Source: Lingula anatina (taxonomy: Eukaryota > Animalia > Brachiopoda). Taken from it: 64,000 nucleotides of DNA. Where the stretch lies: positions 10,474,587 to 10,538,586 of the forward strand of contig CM120648.1 in assembly GCA_051362555.1 (NCBI GenBank), read 5' to 3'. Below, in pieces: positions 1-58,997 of this stretch (positions within the stretch are counted from its first letter, which is position 1; each line of letters begins with the position of its first letter). The notes beneath the pieces are model-generated. The model searched no databases. It was not told the DNA's origin and saw only the letters and a program-made list of their open reading frames with translations. The position numbers and the translations under genes are program-made.

Positions 1-158
1 CAGAAAATCAAGGAAGCATACGACTTGAAAGACGGGGACCCCCTATTGCGTGCCTTCGAGATGGAATTCGATGCACACTGGCAAAAAATGCTGAAGTTTA
101 TGGACGAAAACAAAGACGGACAACTTTCCATAGATGAATGGCTTGACTATTATCCAAG
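1..158 (+). CDS. Calexcitin / sarcoplasmic calcium-binding protein-like gene, internal exon (5' part lies before the window)
   Basis: Frame 1 is open: QKIKEAYDLKDGDPLLRAFEMEFDAHWQKMLKFMDENKDGQLSIDEWLDYYP. It contains a canonical EF-hand loop, DENKDGQLSIDE, and ends at donor AG|GTAAGA (phase 2). Confidence 0.9.
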
Positions 159-845: not shown

Positions 846-940
846 CATCACGTCAACTTCGAAGGCCAAGACCCCTGAAAATCTGCCCACTTTCCTCCTT
901 ACGTTAGCAGACGCTTTTTTCGCGCTGATGGACACTAAAA
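846..940 (+). CDS. Calexcitin/SCP-like gene, mutually exclusive exon A (95 bp)
   Basis: Acceptor TTTTCAG|C and donor A|GTAAGC; phase 2 in, phase 1 out. Encodes (S)ITSTSKAKTPENLPTFLLTLADAFFALMDTK, in frame with both flanking exons. Confidence 0.88.
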
Positions 941-1586
941 GTAAGCCCAGACGCATGGATGGAGGGATCTTCACTTTCGTTTTTCACTTTCATTTTGTTT
1001 GATTTCAGTTCAGACCTTTGGTTACGCATGCGCAGTATGATGATAGTTATCTTGTCCTTTACAGGGTTTTTCTGGTTGCTCATTTATGTTTTGTTCTAAA
1101 ATTTGGTGTGGGTGCTTTTTGCCAAAGCGTGGTGGATGCTTCGTGAACTTTGGTGACGCATATTGCATACACTATGTATCATTCTTCTATGAAAAAGGCA
1201 CTCAAAAGAGACGCAATTTCTTTGTAGAAGAGCAAAAACCTTTCATGTAATGTAACATTGACAGGAAACGGAAATTACCATTACCATTACTATCAGGGAG
1301 AGGAATTGTTCCGAGGATCCGAGTGCCAAACCGGAAACTTGCATTCATCACACACCGCTGTAACAATCAATTTCGCACTTCGCTCTGCTAAAAGCGCCCT
1401 ACACAACTTAAAAATTACCTTTGGTTACTGGTACTAACCTTGCCATGTTGCACTAATACATTTTCTTTTAGTTTGCACCTAGCCTTGTTATAAGAGCGTG
1501 CAGGCGATGCAATTCACCAGGTTGCTTCGTTATAAGCCGCTTTTTGTTTCCACTTAACACCTTCGTCTTCTGTACTTTCTCTCTAG

Positions 1587-1681
1587 CATAACTAGTACAA
1601 CGAAAGGAAAGTCTTTCGACAATCTTCCGACATTCTTACAAAGTCTTGCGGATGCCAAGTTTATACTTATGGACAAGAACA
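1587..1681 (+). CDS. Calexcitin/SCP-like gene, mutually exclusive exon B (95 bp)
   Basis: Acceptor CTTTCTCTCTAG|C and donor A|GTAAGC; same length and phases as exon A. Encodes (S)ITSTTKGKSFDNLPTFLQSLADAKFILMDKN, clearly paralogous to exon A. Confidence 0.88.
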
Positions 1682-2712: not shown

Positions 2713-2822
2713 AGGACGGGTTCATTGATGCCGAAGAGTACAGTGAATTTTGGACCAAATTTGACAAACGCGCTCCTGTAGATCTCGCCACAGCAAAAGA
2801 GCACTTGGCACATTTAACCAAG
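2713..2822 (+). CDS. Calexcitin/SCP-like gene, penultimate exon
   Basis: Acceptor TATTTCAG| and donor AAG|GTAATG. Encodes (K)DGFIDAEEYSEFWTKFDKRAPVDLATAKEHLAHLTK and completes the EF loop begun in exon A or B. Confidence 0.9.
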
Positions 2823-3109: not shown

Positions 3110-3256
3110 AATGGAAAGTATGGTATGGACCTTGCTCACTTCCGGGAAGTTTACGCCGACTACACGTGGTCAAAGGATCCCGATTCTTTCGGTCGTTATG
3201 CATATGGACCTTTAGACATTGCAGATAATAGTGGAAGCGACAGCGATAGCGATTAA
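3110..3256 (+). CDS. Calexcitin/SCP-like gene, last coding exon
   Basis: Acceptor TTTTTTCCAG|. Encodes NGKYGMDLAHFREVYADYTWSKDPDSFGRYAYGPLDIADNSGSDSDSD*, matching the S-x-D...G...(F/Y)GPL C-terminal signature of the SCP/calexcitin family. AATAAA lies at 3280-3285. Confidence 0.88.
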   Translation, partial: NGKYGMDLAHFREVYADYTWSKDPDSFGRYAYGPLDIADNSGSDSDSD

Positions 3257-7941: not shown

Positions 7942-8867
7942 TTAAACGCTTGTAACGAGGCAGAGAGGCGGGCTGCGAGGTAGGCGCCTGTGCGTCGGTA
8001 AAATAGGTGGCGCTGGGTTTGAAAATATCAGGCCCGCACTAGCTTCCGGTCTCCTGCCTCTCAGTTGCGAAAAACGTCTGTCTGAACGGGTAGCAACGGT
8101 AGCGTAGGCGAACCTTTCCGACCGACCTCTCCATCTAAAATAGCCATATCTCTGCTCGTGGAGCAACACCCTGCGGCGGCGTCTGCGGCGCTTGCAAACG
8201 AACACGGTCGTAGCAAACGCGTGCCGAAAATTGGACGAAAGCATATTGTAAAGTACCGGATTTACTGCACTGTTCAGGTAAAAAGCCATCCGGACGAAAG
8301 ACAGCAAATTGAGCTGGGAGTCGATTGATAACCACTGCTTCGAATCGGATGTGCCAAATATAAGCCAAAGCGTAAAAATACGAACGGGAAGCACACACAC
8401 AAAGAACATCACTATAATTCCAACAAGAAGTCCCACGAGCTGTCTCCGCTGTTTTGTCCTTCTACCATTCGCCTTGGTCAGTGTTACCCCCTCGGCAACC
8501 AGAACTGTTCCTATCCGTATATATATTACCATTAAAACAAGTATTGGTATACAGAAATACAGCAAGAACAGCAGAACAATATAAACTTGTTTCCAGTTAG
8601 TGTCTATGGCGGTGGAACAGATCTTGACTGCCTCTTGATTGACAACGTACGTGGCATCGATCACTTTGGCAATGGCCAAAAATGGCGACGAGGACACGAG
8701 GGCGATGACCCACGTGACCAAGATCATCTTCACGGTCCGAGGAGTGGTGCACATTGTCTGAGCGTGAAATGGCCGACAGATGGCGCAGTATCTCTCGAGA
8801 CTGATCAAAGTAATGGAGAGCACTGACGCATGCGCCGTGGTGTTTTCAAGAAAAGGTTGGAGTTTAC
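7942..8867 (-). CDS. Class A neuropeptide GPCR, ecdysis-triggering-hormone-receptor (ETHR)-like, coding exon 2 (TM3-TM7 and C-tail)
   Basis: Minus-strand acceptor TTTCAG|GT AAA. Encodes (C)KLQPFLENTTAHASVLSITLISLERYCAICRP...FFVCVLP...YLNSAVNPVLYNMLSSNFR, with ERY and NPxxY motifs. AHASVL and YLNSAxNPxLYNxxSSxFR are characteristic of the ETHR/TRHR/GHSR-NMUR group. Confidence 0.93.
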
Positions 8868-9931
8868 CTGAAATGTAGTTCATTGCAGTGAATAAATAAA
8901 AATAATCAACTTGGGTTTAAAGTACACGAGTAAGAAAAATGAAAACCCGAGCCAAACATTAAGTGAAACAAATTTATCTCCTCAACCAATGGTCTGTACA
9001 TTCGTTTGCCTGTTTGTCTATAAGGCAAGATCTTGTTTGTAAGTACGACAGTCTGACCAATATTTAAAGAAACGGTGCAAATGTTTAATCATATATTTGG
9101 CATAGTAAAATAGAAAAGGATATATTCTTACGATTTTAAGAAAAACTGTGGCGTAAAGGTCCCCAAGGTGAAACCTGTGAACTAATTTGGCTGAAGACGA
9201 ACCCAGTGAACCATTTCATTTGGAAAATTTATAGATGGGCGACGTGGAGGAAATCGGAGATGTTCTAGTCTAGCCAATTGCACTGAAATGTCTTCTCGAT
9301 ATGAATAAAGTAATATATATTTCTGGGAGGAGAAATTGGAAAAGCGGCTTCTTTGCAAGAATTTTCGATTTCATCTCCGGGAGACATTATATTGCGCAAA
9401 CCTAATAGGGTGATGAATATATTAAGATTAATGAAAAGATAATTTTTTGATGAAGCTTGAGAGTTCTTCATGTCGTTGAACTTATCAAAGCGACAAAGCT
9501 TGTTAAGTGAAGTGCCTAGACGTTTTCCGCAATTAATATATGGTGCAATTTCCTAGACTATTATGTCGTTATCATCACCTTACCTTCTGTCTGGAAAACC
9601 CAAAAACCTTTTAATTTCTTCATTTTAGGCATGTATTACGTGGGATTTTCTATTATCAAACAAAATCTAATAACTTATTTTACGCTGCAGAAAAGCTGTC
9701 AAAACGAAAGAGATCTGACTTGAAGAATCCTTGCCTATAGCCCATTGTCTTTAAGGGGAAACCCACTTTCTAGAGTCTAGAATGAATATAACTATAGTTT
9801 CTTATCGTTTGTTGTCGATTTTGATCACGTCCAGGAAGAGGGAGTGGTCAACAGGGTATATTTCGCGGATAGTACAATTCAAGGGGGAATATGTACGGGT
9901 ATTGATTTAGACCATTTTCATGTTTCACTAC

Positions 9932-14671: not shown

Positions 14672-15082
14672 TAACTCCCTTTCATGAGTTCTCTATATGT
14701 TGGTTTTCTGCTGTTTAGTTAATAGGAAGTTGATAAATTAGCTTATCGTGCGTGGGGACGGGGTTCAGATGGCTCTATTACTTAAAGACTGGGTTTTTCA
14801 TTTGTCAATTTCTCTAAAGCTACCAGTGCTTATACTTCGCTAAGATGTAGAAAAGCCTTAAGTTGCTTCCTTGAAGATGAAGCGAGAACAGCACACACGC
14901 ACACACACACACGCACACACACACACACACACACGAGAAAATCACTCATGTCTCAAATATGAGGGTTCTACTTATATTTCAGGACAACTCAAATCAAATC
15001 ACATCACATCACGACTACAAGACATGCCACTGATTAACACAAAAAAAAAAAACATATATAGCACACGGATAACTTCACTTAC

Positions 15083-15488
15083 ACATAACTTCACCCAAAT
15101 GCCACGCCTCGTTGGCGTAAAACTCGGCCATGGCGGTGGACATACAGATGACCAGAAGCAGGAGGTCAGCCAAACTGAGATTGGCCAGAAACACGTCCGT
15201 TGACCGCCGCATCTGCTTGGTCCGCCAGATGACCACCAAGACCATCGTGTTGCCCACGACCCCCAGGATGAAAATCGCCACGTGGCACACGGAGACCCAG
15301 ATGAGAATATAAGGAGGTGTGGACACCCCGGCCGTGATGACGTCACTGATGTTGTATCCCCTGTTGTTTACACTGCTATTGCTGCTGATGCTGTTGTTGA
15401 AAATGACACTGTCATTCCAGGTATCAAATTCACCGGTAATGCTGGTACTGTTAATGTATTCGCTGTTATTATTGCTAAGCGTTTCCAT
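15083..15488 (-). CDS. ETHR-like GPCR, coding exon 1 (N-terminus, TM1, TM2, ECL1)
   Basis: METLSNNNS... with several N-x-S/T sites, TM1 GN, TM2 FLANLSLADLL and ECL1 WHLGEVMC. Donor T|GTAAGT; the split codon T+GT restores the conserved TM3 Cys in frame with exon 2. There is an in-frame stop upstream of the ATG. Confidence 0.93.
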
Positions 15489-16215
15489 CGCTTTTATACA
15501 AGTAACATCCGAGTTCCCTGCAAAGACGAATGGCCCCGGCGTCGCTCTTGTGGTAGATGTAAGCGTCTACGGCATCGTACTTTATGTGGTAGACGCCAGT
15601 CGCAATGCACTCTGTGTCTTCCCGTCTTGACAAAGTATCTCAGTCGGTAACGTTGCTTCAGCTGTCAAGCATCCAGGTCTTATTTCTAGTGTGGGTTTCT
15701 ACGTCTCCGGTTTGTTCTCAAATCACCAATGACATAGTGCCGTTAGTCATATCCTCGAATCCATCAAATCAATTTGCCTAACATTATTCAATATTACCGC
15801 TATACATAGTTATATAAGCACCGTTTTTTTAACACAGAGATATATAACTGGCTATTAAGATATTACTCTTATTGCGTTCCAACGTATCATGACGTGAATT
15901 CAAATAGGGTATGCATACGACGCACGGTCGCGGAAAAGTTCGGTAAGGTGAGAAGGTCTTGTAACAAATTTGTCTCAGAAAAACAAAGGCTGTCTTTGAG
16001 TGGGGATTTTGGGCCTGGAGTCTTGCGATGTTTCTTGAATTTGTTCTATAGACATTTTAAGTTATGTCTAGAAGACAATGAAAACCATACGCGTTGACCT
16101 AGAACTCAGTGACGCCATATATGGACTAGAAAGGGTTTCCGCAACATGCAGGGTGACAATTTCAGCGATAAAAGAAAAACACTATATCGTGTATTGAGAA
16201 TCTCGTCTCGTATTA

Positions 16216-53262: not shown

Positions 53263-53728
53263 AAAGACAGCCGGCCGTCCACTTGGACCTGTAGTTATTT
53301 CCAAAATTATCAAAATTAAATGAAGTTCAGAAGCCGTCTCTTCATAATTCTCCTGGTGTGAATGAGGCAGAGGAACAGGATATTTTCAGTCAGTCAACTG
53401 ATAAAGCTCTTGTACTGATGGGCTGTTTTGTCTATTTAAGACATTGTAGATTGTGTGATTATGTAACGATTTGTGAATCCAGATAGTACAACTTCGCTTC
53501 TTATCCACAGTGTAGTTAGACTTTTTAATCCACTGATTCCCTTTAAATTTATTCACATTTTACTTTTTAATGTAGAGCTTTGACTTTAAGGGGATCAAGG
53601 AGCCTTTTATCTACCTGCTTTTTATCTTTTTTAACTACTGAAATGATAATTATATAATTTTTTAAATCACGTTATGTGAAAAAAAAACAAAATTTCTTTC
53701 AATTCTACTCTTGAGACAGGGAGTTTAC

Positions 53729-53765
<37 letters not shown>

Positions 53766-53768
53766 CAG

Positions 53769-54104
53769 ATGCAGCCCAGTGAAATCTTTACTGAGGTGCG
53801 GCCATCTTGGAGCTGGTGTTCCATGGGCTGGGCCGTATTCGTCACCCTCTGCTGTTGGCCTTTCAACCTCCTCGGCGCCTGCGGCGTCCTCTGCTCCATG
53901 CTCAGTTATACCGACCACAAGAGCCAAGACTACGAGCGCTCTCGGTACAAGAGGCGCTGCGCGTGGGGCTGCACCATAGCGGGGCTTATCTTGGGATTTA
54001 TCGTCATCACCCTAGCGGTCGTCCTAGTCTTTGTTGTATATCCAACCCTCATACCTGGATTGAAGGACTCAGAAGCCTACAAAAACTGGGACATCAGGCC
54101 TTAG
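53769..54104 (+). CDS. CD225/dispanin-family (IFITM/PRRT/TRARG1-like) membrane protein, paralog 1, exon 2
   Basis: Acceptor ATCAG|. First hydrophobic segment WAVFVTLCCWPFNLLGACGVLCS, then a charged loop YTDHKSQDYERSRYKRRCA, then TM IAGLILGFIVITLAVVLVFVVY. This is the two-hydrophobic-segment CD225 layout with a CC-x-P motif; GC-rich coding composition. Confidence 0.85.
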   Translation: MQPSEIFTEVRPSWSWCSMGWAVFVTLCCWPFNLLGACGVLCSMLSYTDHKSQDYERSRYKRRCAWGCTIAGLILGFIVITLAVVLVFVVYPTLIPGLKDSEAYKNWDIRP

Positions 54105-58316: not shown

Positions 58317-58649
58317 TCATTTTGAGGTGGTTGTATTCCGAAAACTGCGAATCCATGTTGGAAGATTTGCATCCACAGGAAGTCCATAAACCACTCCAAA
58401 AAACACAGCAACAAAAATGATAACGAGAAGCGCAGAAATGAGGTTGATGGCCAGTGCCCATCGATTTTTCCGCTTTAGCCCTGCATAGTCCTTCGTCTTG
58501 TGATCCACGTACGCATGGATCGAACAAAGTAGTGCTAGGAATCCACATGGCGGAAGAATACACATGGTGGTGACGACAGACCAAACTGTTGCTAGCCAGC
58601 TCCAACTGCGGTCTTCTTCTTTGCGTTCTATGTTCCGGGAATAAGTGTA
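58317..58649 (-). CDS. CD225/dispanin-family membrane protein, paralog 2, exon 2
   Basis: Minus-strand acceptor CCTTTCCAG|TAC. Encodes YTYSRNIERKEEDRSWSWLATVWSVVTTMCILPPCGFLALLCSIHAYVDHKTKDYAGLKRKNRWALAINLISALLVIIFVAVFFGVVYGLP...*, which aligns with paralog 1. Confidence 0.85.
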   Translation of the reverse strand, partial: YTYSRNIERKEEDRSWSWLATVWSVVTTMCILPPCGFLALLCSIHAYVDHKTKDYAGLKRKNRWALAINLISALLVIIFVAVFFGVVYGLPVDANLPTWIRSFRNTTTSK

Positions 58650-58997
58650 CTGGAAAGGTGTAGGAAAAATTTTGTTATTTTAGTGCTTTATAATTTTGAC
58701 CAGAAACAAAACACATTTTCTACCTACAGCTAGCTGTTTTGAATTCACAGTTAAACGTCTTTGGTAATTATCATCATGTAAATTGTTTTTTTAAAAATCC
58801 TTACGTCGTTTTTAACGGTTCGGATATCAAATGAAATTTCCCGGGGAAAAAACATTGCGTTTTATATAAAAAGTTAAAAAGTCTACCTATATCAAAACTG
58901 CAGGGATGTTAATTACACTCGACAGATTATTTACAAGTCTAAAAAAAGTACATAAATTGAAGATAAATACCCTTTAATCAATTTAATCAAAAAGCAG

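Follow-up and report, generated by a model that had tools for sequence, protein, structure and literature searches.

The gene and its duplicated exon

The 64,000-nt stretch of Lingula anatina DNA analysed here, hereafter the window, begins inside a gene of the calexcitin/SCP type on the plus strand, and the exons and candidate regulatory motifs of this gene are collected in Table 1. The first exon seen in the window starts at position 4 rather than at position 1, following a CAG acceptor at 1-3, and the loose ends of RNA reads at position 4 continue into the preceding exon. This exon has deep RNA cover, a donor at 159, a Pfam EF-hand match and 100% identity to XP_023930488.1. At the other end of the gene, the 3′ UTR continues after 3256 to at least 3900. 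A rhodopsin-family GPCR gene adjoins the EF-hand gene and faces it; two of its exons lie on the minus strand at 7942-8916 and 15075-15566 (Pfam 7tm_1 positions 1-59 and 58-260). Two CD225/dispanin (IFITM-like) coding stretches, at 53715-54104 on the plus strand and 58317-58679 on the minus strand, also face each other.

Table 1. Exons and candidate splicing motifs of the calexcitin/SCP-type gene (positions in the window)
Feature	Position	Strand	Content
Constitutive exon	4-158	+	EF2 loop and the helices that follow EF1; XP_013383406.1 residues 81-131
Exon A, 95 nt	846-940	+	Asp-Thr-Lys at EF3 loop positions 1-3, preceded by the EF3 entry helix, the linker and the last part of the EF2 exit helix; major, ancestral
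GCATG motifs (Rbfox-type), at 953 and 1026	953-1030	+	Just downstream of A; candidate enhancers of A
ACTAAY motifs (QKI/STAR-type), at 1433 and 1452	1433-1457	+	Upstream of B; candidate silencers of B
Exon B, 95 nt	1587-1681	+	Copy of A; Asp-Lys-Asn at loop positions 1-3; helix residues Lys(-5) and Ile(-3); rare, derived
Constitutive exon	2713-2822	+	EF3 loop positions 4-12, exit helix, next helix; junctions 940>2713, 1681>2713 and 2822>3110; Pfam match
Last coding exon	3110-3256	+	Degenerate EF4; stop codon at 3254-3256

The gene encodes a Lingula anatina protein of the calexcitin/SCP fold, and the family assignment made in the original prediction was supported by both sequence and Foldseek fold matches. 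Spliced with exon A, the gene corresponds to the L. anatina protein XP_013383406.1 (247 aa), whose alleles at 2784 and 3225-3227 are present in the reads of RNA runs X1 and X2. In the RefSeq numbering of this protein, the alternative exon comprises residues 132-162 and the EF3 entry helix residues 146-159. A second RefSeq copy of the gene, XP_023930488.1, lies on another scaffold and terminates early within exon A; it is either a haplotype copy or an assembly artefact. The best solved relatives by sequence were squid calexcitin (E 4e-15) and amphioxus SCP (E 3e-14), and alignment to these structures (2CCM and 2SAS) showed acidic loops in EF1-3 and a degenerate EF4. D62, D73, D113 and D160 are nearly invariant. 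The model of form A adopts a compact four-EF-hand calexcitin/SCP fold (pLDDT 84.9), and its top Foldseek matches were calexcitin, the juvenile hormone diol kinase of silkworm and amphioxus SCP. An ESM Atlas search likewise returned SCP/calexcitin-like clusters (best 0.90). Squid calexcitin (2CCM, 4NDB) and amphioxus SCP (2SAS) superimpose on the form A model with an rmsd of 2.0-2.6 and TM scores by target of 0.87-0.89 and 0.84, respectively, and share with it three EF loops and a degenerate fourth. They differ from the Lingula protein in being only 24-26% identical, in having Ser at EF3 position 3 and in lacking an N-terminal leader.

Two paralogous 95-bp exons with the same phases and donors had been predicted within this gene, and the sequence confirmed them. 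Exons A and B both have AG acceptors, identical GTAAGC donors preceded by A, and phase 2/1 ends. They are identical at 54/95 nt and 20/31 residues and find each other in a tblastn search of the window at E ~5e-9; the next match was at E 0.28, and no third exon copy or paralogous gene was found within the window by this search. Splicing of A alone or B alone keeps the frame open to the stop codon of the last coding exon. As predicted, inclusion of both exons or of neither shifts the frame, and the resulting stops lie at 1589-1591 and 2726-2728, respectively. The downstream splice junction falls inside the EF3 loop, and both loops read as originally quoted, with Lys (A) or Asn (B) at loop position 3. 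Form B, with Asn, therefore has a canonical residue at this position (Asp/Asn/Ser) and form A does not, whereas at position -5 of the EF3 entry helix, a hydrophobic position, form A has Phe and form B has Lys.

Splicing of exons A and B in RNA

Four of the nine listed RNA runs of the Lingula anatina label (X1, X2, X4 and X7) were analysed, with about 6% of X1, X2 and X4 and 25% of X7 read. The listing threshold for a junction was 3 reads from 2 starts, and junctions with 3-10 reads are present among those listed. All four joints expected of an either-or pair were present in X1 and X2 (Table 2). Neither the both-in joint (940>1587), whose absence the original prediction had named as a check, nor the both-out joint (158>2713) was listed in any of the four runs at this threshold, and the two exons are therefore mutually exclusive in steady-state RNA. 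The junction reads and the frame analysis together bear out the claim of a mutually exclusive pair.

Table 2. Reads across the four alternative junctions in each RNA run
Run	158>846	158>1587	940>2713	1681>2713
X1	4315	17	1751	18
X2	4087	16	1896	29
X4	2	0	0	2
X7	7	1	5	0

Exon B is rare in the deep runs. It accounted for 80 of the 12,129 A and B junction reads in X1 and X2 combined (0.66%), exon A making up approximately 99%, a share that could arise from leaky splicing of an old exon. B was found in 2 of 4 junction reads in X4 compared with the 0.66% of X1 and X2 (P 3e-4 for independent reads, 0.013 for reads of two molecules), which hints, from very few reads of runs with no stated tissue, at greater use of B at low expression of the gene. 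B appeared in 1 of 13 junction reads in X7, and none of the four runs examined was B-dominant. Exon A of X7 (846-940) differs from the window at 6/95 nt, three of them residue-changing, suggesting that a cryptic species or a highly diverged lineage bears the same label. Since the single 158>1587 read of X7 comes from a run with this diverged exon A, B is spliced in the diverged lineage too. The introns flanking B (941-2712) had 1-7x sense-strand cover in X1 and X2, and most of the intron at 159-845 had none, suggesting that splicing removes the 159-845 intron earlier than the two introns around B.

The motifs around the two exons offer a candidate basis for the choice between them. Two GCATG motifs were found in 941-1090 against 0.10 expected (Poisson P 0.004) and two ACTAAY motifs in 1387-1586 against 0.11 expected (P 0.006), both motifs having been picked after looking at the sequence. 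GCATG was absent from the matching 150 nt after B and ACTAAY from the 200 nt before A. In mammals, Rbfox bound downstream of an exon promotes its inclusion and QKI bound upstream represses it (PMC11263117, PMC10202634). By these mammalian rules, the placement of the motifs fits a choice of A in muscle-like cells. MBNL-type YGCY motifs showed no enrichment. The heptamer CTTTGGT occurs at 1016, 1148 and 1419 in the A-B intron, with 10 copies on the plus strand of the whole window; two of the copies in this intron lie next to the motifs GCATG (1026) and ACTAAC (1433), and the heptamer is possibly a further splicing element.

Two other ways of excluding one exon were considered and rejected. The B acceptor has a branch-point-like TTAAC at -30 and 17 pyrimidines among the 20 nt before it, and steric exclusion by a distant branch point is ruled out by this candidate branch point and the 646-nt length of the A-B intron. 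For docking-site/selector pairing, 12 duplex tests were performed; the best duplex, between the B acceptor and an AG-repeat region near 261, reached 3/100 shuffles, which is not significant after 12 tests. The inverted repeats found were short or part of repeat elements. Two inverted-repeat elements lie in the intron after B, at 1738-1852 and 2061-2237 (33- and 44-nt arms), and they are probably small mobile elements, since reads from other loci sit on them with loose ends.

Ancestry of the two forms and selection on exon B

To place the Lys and Asn forms, 121 relatives of 90-310 aa were aligned out of 158, with XP_023930488.1 and longer or shorter proteins excluded. In this set, some rows of which are near-copies, EF3 position 3 is Asp in 65 proteins, Asn in 33, Lys in 12 and Ser in 6. 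In a tree of 58 rows made by a quick method, the 10 Lys rows of at least 150 aa and one Asp row from Pinctada formed a single branch of 11 (SH-aLRT 95). The members of this Lys clade include the Lingula gene, its paralogue XP_023929911.1, an Owenia protein and Mytilus proteins. Because Lys is common to 10 of the 11 proteins, it is ancestral in the clade and in exon A, and the Asn of B is read from this comparison as a reversion to the general EF-hand consensus.

The remaining residues point in the same direction. When the 11 residues that differ between A and B were compared with three outgroups, B was derived at 6 and A at none, with 5 unclear. Nine of the 11 differences lie outside the EF3 loop, five of them in the linker. 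Lys162, at a ligand position and invariant in all three outgroups, is replaced in B by the family-canonical Asn. At helix position -5, 115 of the 121 relatives are hydrophobic and one has Lys, as B does; Ile at helix position -3, as in B, occurs in none of the 121. These two residues, judged against the relatives, could mean a destabilised protein. The original prediction had implied that B is the canonical form and A the altered one. This polarity is reversed, as A is both the major form (~99% in two deep runs) and the ancestral one (by its clade), and the event is therefore a rare gain of the canonical loop in B and not its loss in A. The other parts of that interpretation, namely mutual exclusivity, the gene family and the swap at position 3, stand on the evidence of sequence, RNA and fold. 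No similar switch is on record in the Mytilus members of the Lys clade, where all 15 isoforms read (16 members) share one EF3 region. Three Lys-clade relatives (P0014, P0062 and P0155) are predicted proteins without approximately 19 residues of the EF2-EF3 linker, through either a real deletion or a gene-calling artefact.

Comparison of the two exons by codon position gave identities of 23/31, 23/31 and 6/31 at positions 1, 2 and 3, so that positions 1 and 2 together (46/62) differ strongly from position 3 (6/31; Fisher P 6e-7). Accordingly, pS was 0.94 and pN 0.29. If B had evolved neutrally ever since it arose by duplication, dS would be at most about twice dN and pS at most about 0.47; the observed 0.94 departs from this with a binomial P of 4e-5. 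The exons align without gaps and have kept their length, whereas their flanks no longer align. Within the species, no difference in 1587-1681 was found among the differences listed between the window and the X1 and X2 reads, compared with 5 fixed differences in 156 nt of the intron just upstream of B and at least 16 differences in 294 nt of UTR. The chance of finding none in the 95 nt of B is 0.045 or 0.005 among the differences listed, which is moderate evidence. These patterns show that B was under purifying selection through most of its existence, and it probably remains so, although it may have lost its function recently. The faster change in B would fit relaxed selection equally with a new role. 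No B-type protein was found: a weak search with B scored none of five candidates, and the protein cluster of the gene has two members, both A-type. A metagenome scan with a three-protein alignment gave 359 pattern matches, none of which was confirmed.

The EF3 calcium site, competing explanations and related systems

Plant calcineurin B-like (CBL) proteins offer the closest comparison for the loop of form A. Among solved structures, AtCBL2 matched the A loop region best, and its EF4 is identical to the A loop at 9/12 positions. CBL2 and SOS3 are reported to fill non-canonical loops of the Lys type with Ca2+ in crystals; SOS3 has an apparent Kd with an upper limit of ~100 uM, and CBL loops with a non-canonical position Y bind Ca2+ weakly (PMC3634423). 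The same source describes the Lys loop as typical of plant CBLs and the affinities of these proteins as poorly measured (PMC3634423). AtCBL2 and SOS3 resemble form A in having an EF loop with Lys at position Y, but they belong to another family (NCS-like kinase activators), their loop type is convergent and they have no splice switch. By analogy, the site could still be occupied with Lys at position 3, even though this residue would cost it one side-chain ligand. We infer that EF3 would be weak in form A and tighter in form B, possibly offset by the helix changes of B.

The explanation that we favour, held with about even confidence, is that an old tandem duplication gave two 95-nt exons used one at a time. 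Of these, A is predominant and retains the ancestral Lys, and B, rare and derived, likely has a canonical, tighter EF3 Ca2+ site. In strongly expressing cells, perhaps muscle, Rbfox-type factors acting after A and QKI-type factors acting before B would select A, and some other cell type or stage would use B more. Wrong splices with premature stops would be removed by nonsense-mediated decay, which generally clears such products. The EF3 of A would be a low-affinity, CBL-like site short of one side-chain ligand; B would recover the ligand through Asn, and its Lys(-5)/Ile(-3) pair would repack the entry helix. The protein itself is probably a Ca2+ buffer or sensor, and possibly mitochondrial, given its Arg-rich, acid-free leader.

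Much of the same evidence can be read differently. B may instead be a once-functional duplicate that is now fading, with good splice sites that leak at below 1% into a poorly folded, useless protein. We consider this unlikely, although the 0.66% share of B in X1 and X2, the assignment of all 6 polarisable changes to B, the Lys where 115/121 relatives have a hydrophobic residue and the absence of a B protein from the records found all agree with it. A decaying exon would hardly combine saturated synonymous sites with little amino-acid change and an intact length and frame, and B has no polymorphism among the differences listed, beside a polymorphic intron. The one B read in the diverged lineage (X7) also opposes decay, as does the retention of Asp at loop position 1 together with the gain of Asn at position 3, which is an unlikely outcome of decay. 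Alternatively, both exons could be functional but the point of B could be its changed linker and EF3 entry helix, serving partner or small-molecule binding or core packing, with EF3 affinity little changed because the Lys loop already binds Ca2+. This is doubtful in our judgement. The distribution of the differences speaks for it, as 9 of the 11 lie outside the loop and five in the linker, where the model of the folded domain has its lowest confidence (pLDDT 78), and the Lys-type loops of CBL2 and SOS3 are Ca2+-filled in crystals (PMC3634423). Ligand residues are mostly kept in human duplicated exons as well (PMC9741552). The fold is common to juvenile hormone diol kinase and coelenterazine-binding proteins, which makes a pocket or partner role possible. 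What such a role leaves unexplained is that a Lys at a ligand position (Lys162), invariant in the outgroups, was changed to precisely the canonical Asn.

It is far less probable that there is no true either-or switch, B being an optional extra exon and the A+B and skipped transcripts being destroyed by nonsense-mediated decay. In both wrong products the stop lies over 90 nt upstream of a later junction, no steric block or convincing docking-site pairing was found, and the A-B intron has 1-7x cover. Moreover, exits from B (47) outnumber entries (33), whereas entries into A outnumber its exits. Nevertheless, the 33 direct 158>1587 reads show A being skipped when B is used, and decay may help to clear wrong products but cannot make this joint. 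The 940>1587 joint had fewer than 3 reads per run even though A is in 99.6% of entries.

Both components of this arrangement are already known from other systems, namely duplicated either-or EF-hand exons in alpha-actinin and SCP splice variants in crayfish. In ACTN1 and ACTN4, tandem duplicated either-or exons alter EF-hand residues such that one form binds calcium and the other does not (PMC9741552, PMC9177970). The Lingula gene shares with them the tandem duplicated, mutually exclusive exons that change EF-hand residues. However, alpha-actinin is an unrelated protein and its duplication a chordate-specific event, most ligands are lost in one of its forms compared with one position swapped in Lingula, and the Lingula gene has no distant branch point. 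The original statement that spliced SCP isoforms exist in other invertebrates agrees with reports on Procambarus clarkii, whose SCP1 variants pcSCP1a-c are of equal length and differ in one internal variable region (PMC3927571); the three isoforms, of 193 aa and 5 exons, come from one gene (PMC11791374). The crayfish gene thus resembles that of Lingula as an SCP gene with equal-length variants differing in one internal region, but crustacean SCPs are distant from the Lingula protein (~20% identity to Scylla SCP). The crayfish variable region reportedly sits between EF2 and EF3 and alters affinity. Calcium binding of the crayfish SCP1 variants is the topic of a 2015 paper by Rohrback. Beyond EF-hand proteins, the either-or exons 4a/4b of the mitochondrial protein OGDH switch its Ca2+ sensitivity (PMC9177970), and Slc25a3 has a QKI motif between its either-or exons 3a and 3b (PMC10202634), as in the A-B intron. 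Neither is an EF-hand protein, and exclusion in OGDH works by distant branch points. Searches of the open-access literature found no paper on the Lingula gene or how it is spliced, and none on a calexcitin in mitochondria.

XP_013383406.1 carries a 37-residue, Arg-rich and acid-free N-terminal leader, encoded by exons upstream of window position 1. The leaders of this protein, its paralogue and two relatives are 37-41 residues long, without Asp or Glu and with 5-8 Arg/Lys, compared with other Met-initiated relatives, where the first acidic residue lies at position 20 or later in only 2/115. The leader is unfolded in the form A model, and three Lys-clade members, including Mytilus and Pinctada ones, lack it. 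On its composition, we take such a leader to resemble a mitochondrial presequence. Such a leader would argue against a sarcoplasmic calcium-binding protein in the strict sense, which would be soluble, cytosolic and leaderless. A bolder possibility, which we regard as speculative and rather improbable, is that a lophotrochozoan branch of calexcitin/SCP was redirected to mitochondria, that a CBL-like Lys loop of low affinity became fixed in its EF3 to suit matrix calcium levels, and that Lingula added a QKI/Rbfox-controlled swap giving non-muscle cells a canonical high-affinity site.

The interest of the case is limited by the rarity of B in the runs examined and by a splicing device that is already familiar. 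The analysis adds an exon and an isoform missing from the protein records found, and the two forms are a natural pair for the effect of Lys versus Asn at EF-hand position 3 on Ca2+/Mg2+ binding in one scaffold. If the mitochondrial possibility is true, the exon pair would act as a splicing switch in a calcium buffer of mitochondria, parallel to OGDH 4a/4b. The existence of calexcitin-like proteins with a leader of the mitochondrial type could indicate that marine invertebrates have a matrix calcium buffer not yet described.
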